Positions 16,413 to 26,255 of a stretch of DNA of 32,000 nt are shown in pieces (position 1 is the stretch's first letter; every line of letters starts with the position of its first letter). Made by a program: the position numbers and the translations under genes. The notes under the pieces were generated by a model. That model saw nothing but the letters and a program-made list of their open reading frames with translations, made no database searches and was not told the origin of the DNA. The stretch comes from Flavobacterium alvei (GTDB lineage Bacteria; Bacteroidota; Bacteroidia; Flavobacteriales; Flavobacteriaceae), in contig NZ_PQVG01000003.1 of NCBI RefSeq assembly GCF_002920895.1, forward strand, positions 259,879 to 291,878, written 5' to 3'.

Positions 16413-17330
16413 TCAAATCGACCGTAACAATTTCTCTCCGTGCCAAAGTACGCTCGGATTGATAAGTATGATGCAGAAAACGCCCGCCACGATGAGGAAT
16501 TTCAAGACGTTGTGAAGTAAAATATACTGTTCTTTGGTGTTAGATTTCCATAGATGCAGCAGGAAAAAAATCAAAATAATGAAAGAAGCATAGAAGTAAA
16601 TATCCATATAGCCCACGTCGAAAATTTCGATTAAAACATAAACCGGAATGATTGTCGTGATGGTGAGAATAGTGATTATTTTCTTAGAAGTTTCTTCGCC
16701 ATAAAGTATTGGAATTGTGTTGTAGTCATTGGCCAAATCGCCTTTGATGTTTTCTAAATCTTTGATCATCTCCCGAATTAAAATCAATAAAAACAAGAAA
16801 ACGGCGTGTCCAAAAATGACTTCATAGAAATTTTTGTAATACAAAAGAATGGCAAAAAAAGGCAAAATAGCCAAAAAAGCTGCGGTCAAATTTCCTATAA
16901 TGACTAGTTTTTTGATTCGGTGTGAATAATACCAAATCAGGAAAATATAGGCTGAAAAATATAAAAAGGCTCGCCAAGAAACTATAATCGCCAGCAAAGC
17001 CACAATAAAATTAAGTGCAAAATAAACCTGAAGTTTAGTTTTTTGGCTGACCAATCGGTCGAGCATTGATTTGTTGGGGCGGTTAATTAAATCTTTTTTG
17101 CTGTCGTAGAAATTATTGATAATATAACCCGAAGCAATAGTCAACGCAGAAGCAAAAACAATAATAAACAAATCAAAATCGAGTAGAACAGACAAGGCTC
17201 TTTTTTCGGGAGCGAGAATGAATATAGCCGAAAGATATTGTGCCAAAACGATTATCGGAATGTTGTACCCTCTAATCACAGAGAACAAACTGGCAATTTT
17301 CATTAAAAGAATCTTGGACTTTCTGTTCAT
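16413..17330 (-). CDS. UbiA-family prenyltransferase (DGGGP-synthase-like)
   Basis: 305-aa polytopic membrane ORF with an Asp-rich prenyl-diphosphate motif (NNFYDSKKDLINRP) and a second one (KDLENIKGDLANDYNT). Confidence 0.8.
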   Translation of the reverse strand: MNRKSKILLMKIASLFSVIRGYNIPIIVLAQYLSAIFILAPEKRALSVLLDFDLFIIVFASALTIASGYIINNFYDSKKDLINRPNKSMLDRLVSQKTKLQVYFALNFIVALLAIIVSWRAFLYFSAYIFLIWYYSHRIKKLVIIGNLTAAFLAILPFFAILLYYKNFYEVIFGHAVFLFLLILIREMIKDLENIKGDLANDYNTIPILYGEETSKKIITILTITTIIPVYVLIEIFDVGYMDIYFYASFIILIFFLLHLWKSNTKEQYILLHNVLKFLIVAGVFCIILINPSVLWHGEKLLRSI

Positions 17331-19542: not shown

Positions 19543-20019
19543 ATGAATAAAATCTCAAAAATTCTCGTTGTGGTTGCCACTTGTTTAGTTGTTGGATATT
19601 TTTCGGGAGTGGTTACGCGTTCGGCAATCACGACTTGGTATCCTACATTAATAAAACCTAGCTTTAATCCGCCGAATTGGATTTTTGCTCCCGTTTGGAG
19701 TATGCTTTACATAATGATGGGAGTTGCGGCAGGATTGATTTGGGATCGAATAGATTTTGAAAAAGAAATTGTCAAAAAAGCTTTGGTGTTTTTTGCCGTT
19801 CAATTGGCATTGAATGCTTTGTGGTCCTATTTGTTTTTTGGTTTAAAAAATCCAATGTTGGCTGGACTCGAAATCATAATTCTTTGGTTGATGATTTATG
19901 AAACCTATTTTAAATTCTCAAAAATCAATAAAATTGCGGGTTATTTAATGATTCCTTACTTGCTTTGGGTGAGTTTTGCCAGTGTTTTGAATGCTAGTAT
20001 TTGGTGGTTGAATCAATAA
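19543..20019 (+). CDS. tspO: TspO/MBR family tryptophan-rich sensory protein
   Basis: 158-aa ORF with 5 TM helices. Signature: WYPTLIKPSFNPPNWIFAPVWSMLYIMMG. Confidence 0.88.
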   Translation: MNKISKILVVVATCLVVGYFSGVVTRSAITTWYPTLIKPSFNPPNWIFAPVWSMLYIMMGVAAGLIWDRIDFEKEIVKKALVFFAVQLALNALWSYLFFGLKNPMLAGLEIIILWLMIYETYFKFSKINKIAGYLMIPYLLWVSFASVLNASIWWLNQ

Positions 20020-20024
20020 TATTT

Positions 20025-20747
20025 ATGAAAAACCTCTACAGCCAAATTCTACAATCAAAATTAGAAAACGAGAAATTGCTCGCCATTCTTCTAGATCCAG
20101 ACAAAATCAATTTGAAGAATGTAGAAACATTAATCGAAAAAATAAATCAGTCACCAGCGACACATATTTTTATTGGCGGAAGTCTTGTCGAAAGTAATAT
20201 TTTGGACGAACTCATCATAAAAGTGAAACAAAATTGTAATTTGCCTGTTGTGTTATTTCCTGGAAATCCATCTCAAATCTCAGGTCAAGCCGATGGGATT
20301 TTATTCCTGTCTTTAATTTCTGGTAGAAATCCGGATTTTCTAATCGAACATCAGGTTCAAGCCGTTCCGATTTTAAAGAAAACCCAACTCGAAATTATTT
20401 CTACTGGGTATATTCTCATCGAAAGCGGGACAAAAACGGCTGTAGAACGAGTTAGTAAAACTAAACCATTAGACCGAAACAATATTGAATATGTTGTTCA
20501 AACCGCACAAGCTGGCGAATTATTAGGCAATAAATTAATTTATCTCGAAGCTGGAAGTGGTGCCAAACAAGCTGTTCCGTTAGAAATGATTCAAAAAGTA
20601 GCTCAAAATATAAAAATCCCGTTGCTAGTTGGCGGTGGAATTGTAGATTTGCTTGGAATTCAAAAAGCCTATGATTCGGGTGCCGATTTGGTGGTGATTG
20701 GAACAGCTTTTGAAAATAATATAGATTTTTTTAATTCAAATGCGTAG
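20025..20747 (+). CDS. Geranylgeranylglyceryl / heptaprenylglyceryl phosphate synthase (PcrB/GGGPS family)
   Basis: TIM-barrel motifs IFIGGS, YLEAGSGA and LLVGGGI. I prefer the ATG at 20025 over the TTG at 20001. Confidence 0.8.
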   Translation: MKNLYSQILQSKLENEKLLAILLDPDKINLKNVETLIEKINQSPATHIFIGGSLVESNILDELIIKVKQNCNLPVVLFPGNPSQISGQADGILFLSLISGRNPDFLIEHQVQAVPILKKTQLEIISTGYILIESGTKTAVERVSKTKPLDRNNIEYVVQTAQAGELLGNKLIYLEAGSGAKQAVPLEMIQKVAQNIKIPLLVGGGIVDLLGIQKAYDSGADLVVIGTAFENNIDFFNSNA

Positions 20748-21374
20748 ATGATAGAGTACTTTTTTTCGCAATATGCAACCTATTCCACCTTGGATATTAC
20801 TTTAGAAATCGTCGCGGTGATTTTTGGTTTACTCAGTGTTTGGTATGCCAAAAAAGACAATATTTTGGTATTCCCAACAGGATTAGTCAGTACATCAATC
20901 TATGTTTATTTGCTGTGGAAATGGGTTTTGTGGGGCGATATGATGATTAATGGGTATTATTTCATAATGAGTATTTACGGTTGGTATCATTGGACAAGAA
21001 AAAAAGGAGATGTTGTTGAATTCCCAATTTCGGTAATTTCGAGGGCTGAGAAACGAATGAGCCTAATTATTTTTATATTTACGGTCACATTTGTAGTTTT
21101 GGTGTATCACTATTTCGACAAATTTACCACTTGGTATGCTTATGTAGATACCTTCCTAACGGGAATTTTTTTCGTAGGAATGTGGTTGATGGCTAAAAGA
21201 AAAATCGAAAATTGGTTATATTGGATTATTGGTGACATCATTTCCATTCCTTTGTATTTTTCAAAAGGGTTTACTTTTACGAGTTTTCAGTATTTAATAT
21301 TCACAATTGTTGCCATTTATGGTTATTTAGAATGGAAAAAAAACTTAAACAACTCTCAAATAAAGGAGATTTAG
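20748..21374 (+). CDS. pnuC: Nicotinamide riboside transporter, PnuC family
   Basis: 208-aa ORF with 7 or so TM helices and the ENWLYWIIGDIISIPLY motif typical of PnuC. Its ATG abuts the preceding stop (tagatg). Confidence 0.8.
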   Translation: MIEYFFSQYATYSTLDITLEIVAVIFGLLSVWYAKKDNILVFPTGLVSTSIYVYLLWKWVLWGDMMINGYYFIMSIYGWYHWTRKKGDVVEFPISVISRAEKRMSLIIFIFTVTFVVLVYHYFDKFTTWYAYVDTFLTGIFFVGMWLMAKRKIENWLYWIIGDIISIPLYFSKGFTFTSFQYLIFTIVAIYGYLEWKKNLNNSQIKEI

Positions 21375-23452
21375 CAATACTTAAAATTGCCCTATTTGGC
21401 CCCGAATCTACGGGGAAGACTACTTTGGCAAAAGAACTTGCCGAGCATTTTCAGACGGCATTTGTTCCTGAATTTGCCCGTGATTATCTACAAGAGAAAT
21501 GGGATACTTCTGGACAAATTTGTGATGTAAACGATATGTTGCCTATTGCTTATGGTCAATTGAATTTAGAAAACCAAAGTCTTGTTTCGGCTAATAAATT
21601 CCTTTTTTGTGATACCAATTTGATGGTAACCAAAGTGTTTTCGGAAGTATATTACAACTTTTGTGACCCATTATTAGACAAAGCAGCTCGAAAACATGAG
21701 TACGATTTGTTTTTTCTTACCGATATTGATGTGCCTTGGGAAAAAGACGATTTGAGGGACAAACCTGAAGGTCGTGCAACTGTTTTTTCGGTTTTCAAAC
21801 AATCGTTAATAGATAACAATAAACCTTTTATTACTATTTCTGGCACTAAAAAGCAGCGTTTAGAAAAAGCTATTCAGATTGTTGATGATTTGGCAAAAGC
21901 TAAAAAAATGGGGCTTTCTTCCCATGATTTTGTTCAAATTTTCGAACACGGAATTTCTATAGATAACATTATAAGTCAATTGGATTTATTTAAAAACGGA
22001 ATTTCAAAAGCAATTTTGGTAGAGCCTGCAATGGTTTCTAAAGGCATTTTGAAACTTTCGGAAAAAGATTTTCAAGCAAAAGCCGATTTTTTTGATGCTA
22101 ATAAAGCGAATTTTAAATTAGAAAAATTTGTTCCTGCATCAGGTGCCGCCAGCAGAATGTTTAAATTTTTGAATGAATTTTTGAATGAATTTGACATCGA
22201 AAAAGAAACCATCAATGCCTATATTAACAGAAAAAAAGCTAGCGAATTATCCATCTTTATTGTTGGGATGAATAAATTTCCATTCTTTGAAACCGTCTAT
22301 TTAAAATTAAAATCTAAGTTTCCCAATTTTGACAGTTTAGAAAGAGATTATAAAAATTATTATTTTATAAAATACCTGCTCTCACCCGATTATTTTGATT
22401 TTGCTAATAAACCAAAAGGAGTTCTTCCCTTTCATAGATACACCGCTCATATTGCAACAGCAATAGAGGAACATTTCTATGAATGTGCTAATTATTCTAG
22501 TTCGAATGGAAAAGCAAGTTTGCATTTTACAGTTTCTGAATCGCATAAAATGCTATTTGAAGACATCGAAAAAAACACCAAAAAGAAAGTTGAAAAGGAA
22601 TCGGGAATAGCAATAGAAACGCATTATTCTTTTCAAAATAAAAGTACAGATACGATAGCTGTTAATCTAAACAACAAACCATTCAGAGAAGAAAATGGAA
22701 AATTGCTTTTCAGACCTGGAGGCCACGGAGCCTTAATTGAAAATTTAAATAGTCTTGGAGCTGATATTGTTTTTATTAAAAACATAGACAATGTTGCTCA
22801 AAATCGCATCAAGAGTATCGAAATGTACAAAAAAGCATTGGCGGGAATTTTGACGGAATTGCAACAACAAGTTTTTAGGTATTTGAATGAAATGGATCAC
22901 TTTCAAGAAGATGATTTAAATGAAATTGTTGCTTTTGCCACTAATGAATTGAATATTGAATTAGAAGAAAATTTTAGAAAATACAAGTTAGAATATAAAA
23001 TTGATTACCTAAAAACCATTCTGGATCGACCCATTCGTGTTTGCGGAATGGTAAAAAACGAAGGTGAAGCTGGTGGAGGCCCTTTTTGGGTTAGGGATAA
23101 CAGAGGAAATCATTCCTTGCAAATTGTTGAAACCTCACAAGTGGATTTGGTTAATGAAAATCAAGTAAAAATACTGTCGAGTTCCACTCATTTTAATCCT
23201 GTAGATTTGGTTTGTGGAATCCGCAATTATAAAAATGAGAAATTTGATCTGACTCAATTTATAGATCATAATAGCGGTTTTATTGTCGAAAAAAATAGTT
23301 ACGGTAAGATAGTAAAAAGCTATGAATTGCCTGGTTTGTGGAATGGTGCGATGGCAAAATGGATCACTGTTTTTGTTGAAGTGCCTTTGATTACCTTCAA
23401 TCCAGTGAAAACAGTCAATGATTTATTAAAAACAGCACATCAACCACAATAG
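21332..23452 (+). CDS. Fusion protein: NadR-type P-loop (ribosylnicotinamide-kinase-like) domain plus a DUF4301-like domain
   Basis: Single uninterrupted 706-aa ORF that overlaps the pnuC 3' end by 43 nt. The N-terminal 190 or so residues carry Walker A (LFGPESTGKTTL) and EFARDY. The C-terminal 500 or so residues carry FVPASGAASRMF, RPGGHGALIENL and FIKNIDNVAQ, which from memory are DUF4301 features resembling UDP-sugar pyrophosphorylase motifs. Confidence 0.75.
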   Translation: MEKKLKQLSNKGDLAILKIALFGPESTGKTTLAKELAEHFQTAFVPEFARDYLQEKWDTSGQICDVNDMLPIAYGQLNLENQSLVSANKFLFCDTNLMVTKVFSEVYYNFCDPLLDKAARKHEYDLFFLTDIDVPWEKDDLRDKPEGRATVFSVFKQSLIDNNKPFITISGTKKQRLEKAIQIVDDLAKAKKMGLSSHDFVQIFEHGISIDNIISQLDLFKNGISKAILVEPAMVSKGILKLSEKDFQAKADFFDANKANFKLEKFVPASGAASRMFKFLNEFLNEFDIEKETINAYINRKKASELSIFIVGMNKFPFFETVYLKLKSKFPNFDSLERDYKNYYFIKYLLSPDYFDFANKPKGVLPFHRYTAHIATAIEEHFYECANYSSSNGKASLHFTVSESHKMLFEDIEKNTKKKVEKESGIAIETHYSFQNKSTDTIAVNLNNKPFREENGKLLFRPGGHGALIENLNSLGADIVFIKNIDNVAQNRIKSIEMYKKALAGILTELQQQVFRYLNEMDHFQEDDLNEIVAFATNELNIELEENFRKYKLEYKIDYLKTILDRPIRVCGMVKNEGEAGGGPFWVRDNRGNHSLQIVETSQVDLVNENQVKILSSSTHFNPVDLVCGIRNYKNEKFDLTQFIDHNSGFIVEKNSYGKIVKSYELPGLWNGAMAKWITVFVEVPLITFNPVKTVNDLLKTAHQPQ

Positions 23453-23454
23453 TT

Positions 23455-23856
23455 TTGGAACCAGAGAAAATCATATCCGAATTACAGTTCAAAGCGGTTC
23501 GCAGTAGTGGAGCCGGAGGTCAAAATGTGAATAAAGTGTCCTCAAAAGTGGTCTTGTCATTCGATTTGAAAAATTCGCAAGCTTTGTCAGAAGATGAAAA
23601 AGCACTGTTAGAATTCAAATTGGCATCAAGATTAACTTCTGATACTATTTTGATTTTGAATTGTGACGAAGATCGAAGTCAGCTCAAAAACAAAGCCATT
23701 GTTATCAAAAGGTTTCTGGATATTATTACCGCTGGCCTCGTAGTTCCAAAAATTAGAAAAGCCACAAAAATCCCTAAATCGGTGATTAGAAAACGAATGA
23801 AGGACAAAAATCATATTTCTGAAATTAAAAAGTCGCGCCGGAAACCTGATTTTTAA
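23455..23856 (+). CDS. arfB: Alternative ribosome-rescue factor ArfB (peptidyl-tRNA hydrolase)
   Basis: 133-aa ORF with the GGQ motif (SSGAGGQNVNKV) and a basic C-terminal tail. The apparent start is TTG, with no nearby in-frame ATG. Confidence 0.8.
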   Translation: MEPEKIISELQFKAVRSSGAGGQNVNKVSSKVVLSFDLKNSQALSEDEKALLEFKLASRLTSDTILILNCDEDRSQLKNKAIVIKRFLDIITAGLVVPKIRKATKIPKSVIRKRMKDKNHISEIKKSRRKPDF

Positions 23857-23905: not shown

Positions 23906-23910
23906 CGTCG

Positions 23911-23990
23911 TCTCAAAGGGGTGCTCTAAATAACGAGCTGAGATTATACCCATAGAACCTGAACAGGTAATGCTGTTAAGGGAAAACAGA
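23911..23990 (+). promoter_or_regulatory. TPP (THI-box) riboswitch
   Basis: The conserved core is read directly: GGGGTGC...GCTGAGA...ACCC...AACCTGA.CAGGTAATGCTG..AAGGGAA. It sits about 100 nt upstream of the TonB-dependent receptor ATG. Confidence 0.88.
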
Positions 23991-24092
23991 AATAAAGATG
24001 AAGTGCACGTCATCCGAAAAGTCTGGAACAACAATCATTTATTAATTTAACAAAAGAATAATTCCCCCTTTTATTCGTAAAACTATTTACGG

Positions 24093-26255
24093 ATGAACCA
24101 TTTATTTTATTTACAAAGACTAAAGTCCAAAGTCCAAAGTCCAAAGTCCAAACTTTTTATAACATCTAGTTTCTTTGTTCTAACTTCTATTTTCTCTACT
24201 GCACAAGAAAAACCAAAAGACACTACTAAAGTCAATCAACTTGACGAAGTTTTGGTCTCTGCAGTTCGTGTAACTACAAAAACGCCTGTTTCTTTTAGTA
24301 ATCTAGACAAAAAGGAAATTAAAACCCGAAATTTAGGGCAAGATATTCCTATTTTGATGAACTATTTGCCCTCAGTAGTGACCACCTCCGATGCTGGAAA
24401 TGGTGTGGGTTATACCGGAATTCGAGTTCGTGGTAGCGATGCCACTCGGGTAAACGTGACCATCAACGGAATACCTTATAACGATTCTGAAAGCCACGGA
24501 ACCTATTGGGTCAATATGCCCGATTTTGCTTCTTCATTAGAAAGTATTCAATTGCAACGCGGAGTTGGAACTTCTACTAATGGTGCTGGAGCTTTTGGAG
24601 CCAGTTTGAATATGCTGACTGAAACGTATTCTAAAAAAGCAACAGCCGAAATTTCAAGTTCATTAGGGAGTTTTAATACTAATAAAAACACAGTAAAATT
24701 CAGTACAGGTTTATTGAACAACCATTTTGAAATGGCAGGACGTTTGTCTGTATTAAAATCTGATGGATATATTGATAGAGCCAGTTCTAATTTGAAATCC
24801 TATTTTCTGCAAGGAACCTATATCGGAAATACAACCTTAATCAAAGCTTTGGTTTTTGGAGGAACTGAAAAAACATACCAATCTTGGAACGGAATTGATG
24901 CTGCAACAATGGCAACTGATAGAACTTTCAACTCGGCAGGAATATATACTGACGAAGCAGGAAAAACTCGTTTTTATGACAATGAAACCGATAATTATAA
25001 GCAAGACCATTATCAATTGCATTGGAACGAAAAGCTATCCGAAAATTGGAGTACCAATCTAGCGTTTCATTATACCAAAGGGAAAGGATATTATGAAAAC
25101 TATAAAGAAGATGCTAAATTTTCGAGTTATGGATTAACTCCAATTGTTATTGGCGGGACAACCATAAATACAACCGATTTGGTACGTCAGAAATGGTTGG
25201 ATAACGATTTTTATGGCACTACTTTTTCAGCTAATTACAAAAGTGAAAAACTGGATGTAATTCTTGGCGGTGGATGGAACAAATACGAAGGCGTGCATTT
25301 TGGCAAAGTAATTTGGGCTAGATATGCTTCGCAAAGCGAATTGGGCGACCGTTATTATGAAGATCAAGCAACCAAAACCGACGGAAATATTTTTGCTAAA
25401 GCCAATTATCAAATCACCCCAAAAATAAGTTTGTTTGGTGATTTACAACTGCGAAATGTAACTTACAAAGCCAACAGTTGGGAAACAGGAACAGTCGATG
25501 ATACCTTTACTTTCTTCAATCCAAAGGCAGGTTTGAATTATGATATTGATGCAAAGAACAAATTGTATTTCTCCTACGCAAGAGCCAATCGCGAGCCGAA
25601 TCGAACCGATTATGAAAATGGAAACCCCAAACCTGAAAAGCTAAATGACTATGAATTGGGCTGGAGATGGAATGCTGAGAAAGTAAAAATCAATACAAAT
25701 ATTTATTATATGGCCTACAAAGACCAACTGATTTTGACTGGAAAACTAGACGATGTAGGAAGTCCAATTCGTTCTAACAGCGATACAAGTTACCGTTTGG
25801 GGTTAGAAGTTGATGCAACAATTCAATTGTCTAAAAAGTTTATTATTCGACCTAATTTTACTTTGAGTGATAATAAAAATGTCGATATGAATATTGGGTT
25901 AGGAGATGTAACCACTAATATTGCTTATTCACCTTCGGTAATTTTCGGAAATATTCTAGTGTATTCTCCAATAGAGCAATTGCATATTTCGTTGTTGCAA
26001 AAATTTGTTGGAGATCAGTTTATGAACAATTTTGATTCAGTAGAATCCAGATTGCCAGATTATTTTGTCAACGATCTTAACATTGTATATTCCATAAAAC
26101 CTAAAACCATTTTCAAAGAAATAGTTTTAACAGGTTTGGTCAATAATATGTTGAACAAGAAATATGTGTCAAATGGCTATATGTGGGATGTCTATCCGTA
26201 TTATTATCCTCAATCAGGAATTAATTTCTTGGCAGGAATGACTTTGAAGTTTTAG
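24093..26255 (+). CDS. TonB-dependent outer-membrane receptor (likely thiamine or thiamine-precursor uptake)
   Basis: 720-aa ORF with a signal peptide, a TonB-box/plug region (LDEVLVSAVRV...GIRVRGS) and a C-terminal beta-barrel ending in F. It is preceded by the TPP riboswitch. Confidence 0.88.
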   Translation: MNHLFYLQRLKSKVQSPKSKLFITSSFFVLTSIFSTAQEKPKDTTKVNQLDEVLVSAVRVTTKTPVSFSNLDKKEIKTRNLGQDIPILMNYLPSVVTTSDAGNGVGYTGIRVRGSDATRVNVTINGIPYNDSESHGTYWVNMPDFASSLESIQLQRGVGTSTNGAGAFGASLNMLTETYSKKATAEISSSLGSFNTNKNTVKFSTGLLNNHFEMAGRLSVLKSDGYIDRASSNLKSYFLQGTYIGNTTLIKALVFGGTEKTYQSWNGIDAATMATDRTFNSAGIYTDEAGKTRFYDNETDNYKQDHYQLHWNEKLSENWSTNLAFHYTKGKGYYENYKEDAKFSSYGLTPIVIGGTTINTTDLVRQKWLDNDFYGTTFSANYKSEKLDVILGGGWNKYEGVHFGKVIWARYASQSELGDRYYEDQATKTDGNIFAKANYQITPKISLFGDLQLRNVTYKANSWETGTVDDTFTFFNPKAGLNYDIDAKNKLYFSYARANREPNRTDYENGNPKPEKLNDYELGWRWNAEKVKINTNIYYMAYKDQLILTGKLDDVGSPIRSNSDTSYRLGLEVDATIQLSKKFIIRPNFTLSDNKNVDMNIGLGDVTTNIAYSPSVIFGNILVYSPIEQLHISLLQKFVGDQFMNNFDSVESRLPDYFVNDLNIVYSIKPKTIFKEIVLTGLVNNMLNKKYVSNGYMWDVYPYYYPQSGINFLAGMTLKF
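24115..24152 (+). repeat. Heptanucleotide tandem repeat (AAAGTCC)x4 plus degenerate flanking copies, inside the 5' end of the receptor ORF
   Basis: Read directly: aaagact aaagtcc aaagtcc aaagtcc aaagtcc aaa. It encodes the KSKVQSPKSK n-region of the signal peptide. Confidence 0.85.

Follow-up and report, generated by a model that had tools for sequence, protein, structure and literature searches.

Two vitamin uptake systems and one enzyme family are the closest described counterparts of the locus reported here. Thiamine enters Bacteroides thetaiotaomicron through an OMthi-PnuT-thiamine pyrophosphokinase (TPK) system under the control of thiamine pyrophosphate (TPP) riboswitches (PMC5613172), and nicotinamide riboside (NR) uptake by PnuC and NadR follows a metabolic trapping logic (PMC5749112). 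The enzyme family is that of the UDP-sugar pyrophosphorylases (UDPGP; PF01704), with UDP-glucose pyrophosphorylase (UGPase) and UAP1/AGX1 as members (2icx, 6tn3, 3r2w, 5nzj). We analyzed a 32,000-nucleotide stretch of Flavobacterium alvei DNA (NCBI RefSeq assembly GCF_002920895.1, contig NZ_PQVG01000003.1, positions 259,879 to 291,878), referred to as the window, in which a gene for a PnuC-family channel (pnuC; 20748–21374, plus strand; 208 aa) is followed by a single 706-aa open reading frame (ORF; 21332–23452, plus strand) that shares 43 nt with the 3' end of pnuC, an arrangement that a preliminary description of this DNA had given correctly. The ORF joins a kinase domain like the ribosylnicotinamide kinase (RNK) domain of NadR to a member of the DUF4301 family. 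The reading we prefer, with confidence slightly better than even, is that channel and kinase form a thiamine-linked (or NR-linked) trap and that the kinase has been fused in frame to an independent nucleotidyltransferase of the UDPGP fold. As in the PnuC and NadR systems of H. influenzae (1lw7) and L. lactis (6gye), a PnuC-family channel is followed by an RNK-homologous kinase in the window, and the trapping logic would be shared; unlike NadR, the window kinase lacks the nicotinamide mononucleotide (NMN) adenylyltransferase (NMNAT) and helix-turn-helix (HTH) domains and is fused instead to a UDPGP-fold enzyme.

The channel matched PF04973 above the gathering score (E = 3e-55, 187 bits) and passed the cut-off of the TIGR01528 PnuC equivalog (99.6 bits; cut-off 42.45). 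Residues 18–176 of the ORF (21383–21859, plus strand) matched the P-loop family AAA_28 (PF13521; E = 2e-39), and the PDB matches of the N-terminal part were confined to the RNK domain of NadR (9x6f, E = 6e-18; 8x7f; 1lw7; E values from 6e-18 to 4e-13). The same part aligned with the RNK portion alone of TIGR01526 (positions 165–319) and of NF005988, and a Pfam and NCBIfam scan of the 706-aa ORF detected neither an NMNAT (CTP_transf_like) nor an HTH domain, which agrees with the truncated NadR architecture proposed earlier. Walker A, Walker B and the lid motif are all kept, and the residues invariant in our alignment of the kinases (A3) are G23, P24, E25, G28, K29, D94, T95, D133, W136, D139, R142 and R148. 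Judged from these residues, the domain is a P-loop kinase of the NadR-RNK type whose catalytic apparatus is intact. The published structure papers on PnuT and NadR offered no specificity-determining residues applicable to this channel or kinase. Two further genes of the host genome belong to the same families: a second stand-alone AAA_28 kinase (C1:242903–243451; L007:4904–5452; 182 aa) adjoins recQ and is ~25% identical to the window kinase domain, and a second, very divergent PnuC-family gene (C16:186030–186779; L008:5030–5779, minus strand) lies between phoU and polA, matches PF04973 with 66 bits and no NCBIfam model, and is an alternative candidate for a thiamine or NR channel.

The remainder of the ORF, residues 197–704 (21920–23443, plus strand), is DUF4301, as the preliminary description had proposed (PF14134; E = 3e-198; 660 bits, cut-off 27; model positions 2–507 of 507). 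The family comprises 2,632 clusters at 50% identity, overwhelmingly stand-alone proteins of ~500–530 aa, and our literature search on DUF4301 and PF14134 found no paper on function. An AlphaFold (AF2) model built from an alignment of 113 diverse members was of high predicted quality (pLDDT 96.4, pTM 0.94), and in a Foldseek search of the PDB the top 50 matches were all UDP-glucose or UDP-N-acetylglucosamine (UDP-GlcNAc) pyrophosphorylases (probability 1.0, E from 2.5e-10, TM 0.4–0.55), placing DUF4301 in the fold of the UDPGP enzymes at a sequence identity of 10–17%. Residues invariant among the 113 members include G77, R81, K168, Q241, R267, G270, H271, G272, N290, N293, E406 and K499. The motifs run in the order glycine-rich loop with Arg, PKG, SxQ, RPGGHG, KNIDN, GGGP, VE..Q, HFNP, ELPGLWNGAM and FNPVK, which is that of a bona fide bacterial UGPase when matched by order against one sequence rather than by structural alignment; the order shared with UDPGP reads glycine-rich loop with Arg, PKG, SxQ, GHG, NxDN, GGG, E..Q, FN and FxPVKTxNDLL. 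Profile alignment (hhalign against one true UGPase) paired the last motif only, FNPVKTVNDLL with FxPVKTxxDLL of UGPase. The quoted segments from which a UDP-sugar-pyrophosphorylase-type nucleotidyltransferase had been proposed (FVPASGAASRMF, RPGGHGALIENL and FIKNIDNVAQ) are all present in the translation, as are those quoted for the kinase (LFGPESTGKTTL and EFARDY) and for the domain junction (KKMGLSSHDFVQI), and fold, ordered motifs and C-terminal motif alignment bear that proposal out.

Sequence comparison across the two families gave little else. Four DUF4301 proteins had zero matches to PF01704 up to E = 10, a PDB sequence search with a single DUF4301 domain returned nothing, and a PDB profile search gave a weak C-terminal match to UGPase; a match to a designed protein in the same profile search was rejected as spurious. 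Unlike UGPase, DUF4301 has two helical insertions of ~85 residues each, after the glycine loop and after NxDN, and an additional N-terminal helical segment, and it lacks the UGPase C-terminal domain. From the modelled fold and the retained motifs we infer that DUF4301 is a diverged, still active nucleotidyltransferase of the UDPGP fold, with NTP + X-phosphate -> NMP-X-phosphate + PPi as its very probable reaction. By analogy, a sugar-1-phosphate acceptor and a UDP-hexose-type product would be the default guess.

That guess can be extended into a full explanation of the locus, in which DUF4301 would be the cell's UDP-glucose or UDP-hexose pyrophosphorylase, replacing a missing GalU, and would sit beside the vitamin genes, and be fused to them, only because gene order was inherited and the frames happened to merge. 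We regard this as possible but clearly less likely than the preferred reading. It is favoured by the nearest folds, all UGPase or UAP, by the retention of every UGPase motif in order, and by a host genome without GalU (best match 47 bits; cut-off 327) and without a PF01704 member. DUF4301 also occurs in 9 of the 14 genomes with a UDP-glucose-using GT3 glycogen synthase, although this co-occurrence is partial and confounded by phylogeny, and Flavobacteriaceae carry DUF4301 without a GT3 synthase. Canonical GalU (TIGR01099, E < 1e-60) and eukaryote-type UDPGP were each found in 2 of 301 complete Bacteroidota genomes, and DUF4301 in just 50 of them; since GalU and UDPGP are nearly absent and DUF4301 is so restricted, DUF4301 cannot be the general UGPase of the phylum, and because both enzymes are almost absent their complementarity with DUF4301 is uninformative. 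Sugar genes do occur next to distant DUF4301 genes, such as a same-strand galactokinase gene immediately upstream in one locus (L079:8778–9947) and a phosphoglucomutase/phosphomannomutase divergently adjacent in another (L132:4233–5579), but neither neighbour recurs elsewhere. The two large insertions and the absent C-terminal domain, which bear on the acceptor pocket, count somewhat against this explanation, and a UDP-hexose enzyme would leave unexplained the repeated fusion to the kinase and the predicted interface between the two halves (see below).

Next, we examined the fusion itself. More than 100 listed clusters from Flavobacterium, 702–706 aa in length, carry PF13521 together with PF14134, and because hundreds of Flavobacterium proteins share the architecture, the fusion is genuine and no assembly artefact. 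In a survey of 80 species-representative loci, almost all from Flavobacteriaceae, pnuC lay just upstream in 74; kinase and DUF4301 were fused in 19, encoded separately in 46 and, in 8, pnuC was followed directly by DUF4301 without a kinase. Where the kinase gene (rnk) is separate, its spacing from DUF4301 ranges between an overlap of 17 nt and a gap of 7 nt, a 4-nt overlap being the most common, with one exception in which it lies ~2 kb upstream (L083). In the unfused relatives L057, L029 and L064 the rnk stop codon and the DUF4301 start codon overlap as ATGA. Met193 of the fusion (ATG at 21908–21910, plus strand), which had been noted as an internal methionine at the domain junction, lines up exactly with the codon at which unfused DUF4301 genes start, and their N-termini match residues 193 onward; because the stop/start overlap sits at the same position in these relatives, Met193 is a relic start codon of a separate DUF4301 gene. 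The fusion arose through a single frame change at the ATGA overlap. In a quick-search tree of the DUF4301 domain with SH-aLRT support values, one fusion falls at the base of Flavobacterium and at least one more, separate from it, in Flagellimonas/Croceivirga, for which the sister group Muricauda has unfused genes; within Flavobacterium the kinase domain later disappeared on at least three occasions while DUF4301 persisted. A transcriptome paper on F. psychrophilum contained no operon detail on this locus.

Outside Flavobacteriaceae, DUF4301 is found away from these partners. Among 29 loci from 12 other families, none had pnuC, rnk, arfB, pcrB or a TonB receptor within 9 kb of DUF4301, and none of 40 rnk loci of other families had DUF4301 within 5 kb. 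The expectation that DUF4301 genes generally adjoin or fuse to pnuC and the kinase gene thus held within Flavobacteriaceae and failed elsewhere. We compared five complete DUF4301-bearing genomes from other families. Three of them (G106, G183 and G212) have DUF4301 without PnuC and without a true AAA_28 kinase, and in the other two (G214 and G242) hundreds of kilobases separate DUF4301 from the pnuC-rnk pairs; B. thetaiotaomicron, used as a control, likewise has DUF4301 and no AAA_28 protein. Neighbours of DUF4301 outside Flavobacteriaceae are heterogeneous, with none conserved, and an apparent neighbour cluster of 11 loci was discarded as chaining through receiver and histidine-kinase domains. 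Kinase-free genomes, distant loci and repeated loss of the kinase domain together show DUF4301 to be independent of the kinase. Since the family is mostly stand-alone and occurs in genomes without PnuC or kinase, the kinase does not set the substrate of DUF4301.

The channel and the kinase belong to a lineage of their own. Their closest counterparts were the TPP-linked pair of G214 (44% identity for PnuC and 41% for the kinase), compared to 28% and 29%, respectively, for a NadR-linked pair. In the PnuC tree, the channels linked to NadR group in a separate clade (support 99), and the window channel, a candidate PnuT-like thiamine transporter or NR transporter, falls in the clade linked to RNK-only kinases, beside the G214 copy. 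On this sequence evidence pnuC and the RNK-only kinase are an orthologous group distinct from the true PnuC-NadR pairs that Bacteroidia also carry. One genome holds both a TonB receptor-PnuC-NadR module, with NMNAT and RNK domains, and a separate PnuC-RNK-only module. In a Bacteroidia family other than Flavobacteriaceae, a compact TonB receptor-PnuC-NadR operon (L123; G242:C1:2792703–2796269), whose 326-aa NadR has NMNAT and RNK domains without HTH, looks like a complete NR uptake module with its own outer-membrane receptor.

Thiamine is suggested by what lies downstream. A TPP riboswitch-like element (23907–24001, plus strand) covers the full RF00059 model (45.9 bits, E = 7e-7), is the sole TPP match in the whole genome, and lies between arfB and a TonB-dependent outer-membrane receptor gene (24093–26255, plus strand; Plug and TonB_dep_Rec_b-barrel domains) that, with the riboswitch directly upstream, may encode an OMthi-like receptor for thiamine. 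We built a covariance model from ten of these elements, and it placed a TPP element at the same position in 68 of the 80 related loci, always 3' of DUF4301/arfB and 5' of the receptor; it superseded a strict regular expression for the TPP core, which had recovered 10 sites only. Across Flavobacteriaceae the receptor keeps this place after the riboswitch. Of 151 genomes of the class, 72 have RNK-only homologues, and in the 40 rnk loci from ~25 families outside Flavobacteriaceae pnuC was directly upstream of rnk in 31 and a TonB receptor directly downstream in 12, with a TPP riboswitch between rnk and receptor in 11 of these 12. Positional counterparts in other families score 57–74 bits; 4 of the 11 reach the Rfam gathering score, as does the G214 locus, which is outside the 40. 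In one locus (L151; G134:C1:1771600–1782100) pnuC, rnk, a TPP riboswitch (57.5 bits) and a TonB receptor follow in order, and a TPK homologue of the same orientation is found ~1 kb beyond them. In another (L160; G154:C28, 4063–5508, minus strand) an RNK-like domain in a frame of ~480–498 aa, fused to a partner other than DUF4301, precedes a TPP riboswitch and a TonB receptor gene.

The host genome is consistent with a need for such uptake. ThiC and ThiE are absent from it, so thiamine must be imported. TPK is present, on another contig, and the genome also has ThiL (315 bits), which is an orphan because its only substrate, thiamine monophosphate (TMP), has no biosynthetic source in this genome; an adjacent kinase making TMP from imported thiamine would explain it. 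The locus resembles the B. thetaiotaomicron system in having a predicted TPP riboswitch before a TonB-dependent receptor, clustered with a Pnu channel and a kinase, in a host that relies on imported thiamine. Unlike in that system, the adjacent kinase is an AAA_28 P-loop protein and not TPK, the riboswitch is downstream of the channel-kinase pair, and the specificity for thiamine is a prediction from the genes. Between the two candidate substrates of channel and kinase, we consider thiamine or a close thiamine-related compound somewhat the more probable, with NR a serious contender.

Taken together, the preferred reading would run as follows. The 706-aa ORF is a genuine two-enzyme fusion inherited by the genus, made when two translationally coupled neighbours with an ATGA overlap were brought into one frame. 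Channel and kinase would act by facilitated diffusion plus a phosphorylation trap: at the inner membrane the channel would take up thiamine or a close relative and the kinase would phosphorylate it, with NR as the alternative substrate. This putative trap pair would belong to the RNK-only lineage that, in many Bacteroidia families, appears directly upstream of a TonB receptor under predicted TPP-riboswitch control. DUF4301 would transfer a nucleotide from NTP to an X-phosphate whose identity is independent of the kinase.

Several observations weigh against this reading, some of them concerning the thiamine link and others the independence of the two enzymes. The TPP element of the window scores below the Rfam gathering threshold (45.9 vs. 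54.3 bits) and, since it lies downstream of pnuC-rnk, can regulate the receptor only. TPK alone could trap thiamine, and a thiamine kinase is then not strictly required; homology of the kinase to a proven NR kinase domain and the TIGR01528 score of the channel both favour NR. As for independence, modelling the kinase and DUF4301 halves as a complex gave an ipSAE of 0.75 (best control 0.00), a value that 58 of 80 solved complexes but also 2 of 110 mismatched pairs attained, with 100% contact agreement among three runs and partner pLDDT ≥80. The predicted interface brings the C-terminal part of the kinase onto the first two DUF4301 helices; it adjoins the cut point of the fusion protein, and those helices also occur in stand-alone DUF4301s. 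The model supports binding between kinase and DUF4301. Tight translational coupling of the two genes across the whole family and the occurrence of at least two independent fusions favour functional coupling as well. Given two fusion events and the predicted contact, some functional link may exist in Flavobacteriaceae, whatever the reaction.

The preliminary description had gone further along this line, proposing DUF4301 as the missing NMN adenylyltransferase: PnuC would import NR, the kinase would make NMN, and DUF4301 would be a non-orthologous NMNAT in place of that of NadR. The homology of the kinase to the NadR RNK domain, the channel score, the intact nucleotidyltransferase motif set of DUF4301, the gene coupling throughout Flavobacteriaceae with its repeated fusions, and the domain contact supported by the complex model are all in keeping with this idea, as is the host genome, in which none of five cytidylyltransferase-like genes is a NadR-type NMNAT or NadM. 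There is, however, no pathway gap to fill. The host genome is 100% complete and contains NadA, for de novo synthesis, together with NadD (176 bits) and PncC, and known steps therefore lead from NMN to NAD. PncC was found in 301 of 301 Bacteroidota genomes, which makes an anticorrelation with DUF4301 impossible. DUF4301 accompanies rnk in one family only, exists in genomes without PnuC or kinase (and, in the B. thetaiotaomicron control, without AAA_28), and has outlived the kinase domain at least three times. Moreover, the sole clear NR module that we saw, TonB receptor-PnuC-NadR with its NMNAT, belongs to another PnuC and kinase lineage than the window pair, and UDPGP-fold enzymes are known to act on sugar-1-phosphates and are not known to act on ribose-5-phosphate nucleotides. 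We hold the NMNAT proposal to be unlikely.

A coupled pathway could also be built around thiamine. Adenylated thiamine nucleotides exist in bacteria and were described in E. coli, and no synthase gene is known for them. The kinase might make thiamine phosphate and DUF4301 might adenylylate it to adenosine thiamine di- or triphosphate, an idea with which the thiamine link of the pnuC-kinase pair, the fusion events and the predicted contact would agree. Yet DUF4301 is present in many genomes without kinase or PnuC, and the E. coli control has no DUF4301, which leaves this scheme very improbable. Only a little less probable than the NMNAT proposal, by our estimate, is a broader combination, in which the RNK-only AAA_28 kinases behind PnuC-type channels of Bacteroidia would be an undescribed class of thiamine kinase feeding the orphan ThiL and, in Flavobacteriaceae, DUF4301 would dock onto the kinase and nucleotidylate its product or a vitamin phosphate (NMN or thiamine phosphate) to a dinucleotide.

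The genes around pnuC and the fusion ORF are tightly packed in the order tspO, pcrB-like, pnuC, fusion ORF and arfB, followed by a 236-nt gap and the TonB-dependent receptor gene. The gene for a PcrB/GGGP-synthase-like prenyltransferase (20001–20747, plus strand; NF003198, 285.7 bits, cut-off 247) abuts pnuC and is overlapped by a TspO/MBR gene (both within 19543–20747, plus strand). A PcrB-like gene lies 5' of pnuC in 45 of the 80 Flavobacteriaceae loci, and none was seen near DUF4301 or rnk in the surveyed loci of other families. Downstream, arfB (23455–23856, plus strand; NF006718, 121.8 bits, cut-off 100), encoding an alternative ribosome-rescue peptidyl-tRNA hydrolase, follows DUF4301 in most Flavobacteriaceae loci and is probably a conserved neighbour of unrelated function. 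Elsewhere in the window, a Flavo-1 RNA (RF01705; 16327–16402, plus strand; 65.9 bits, gathering score 42) adjoins a minus-strand ORF (16413–17330).

DUF4301 is found in B. thetaiotaomicron and in most Flavobacteriaceae, and its placement among the UDP-sugar pyrophosphorylases narrows the assays required to define its reaction. The labels "nicotinamide riboside kinase" and "NadR-type NMNAT" that proteins of the RNK-only lineage carry in databases may be wrong. The lineage of RNK-only kinases and their PnuC channels, together with the TPP-riboswitch receptors and the orphan ThiL, points to a candidate thiamine-trapping kinase of abundant environmental thiamine auxotrophs.

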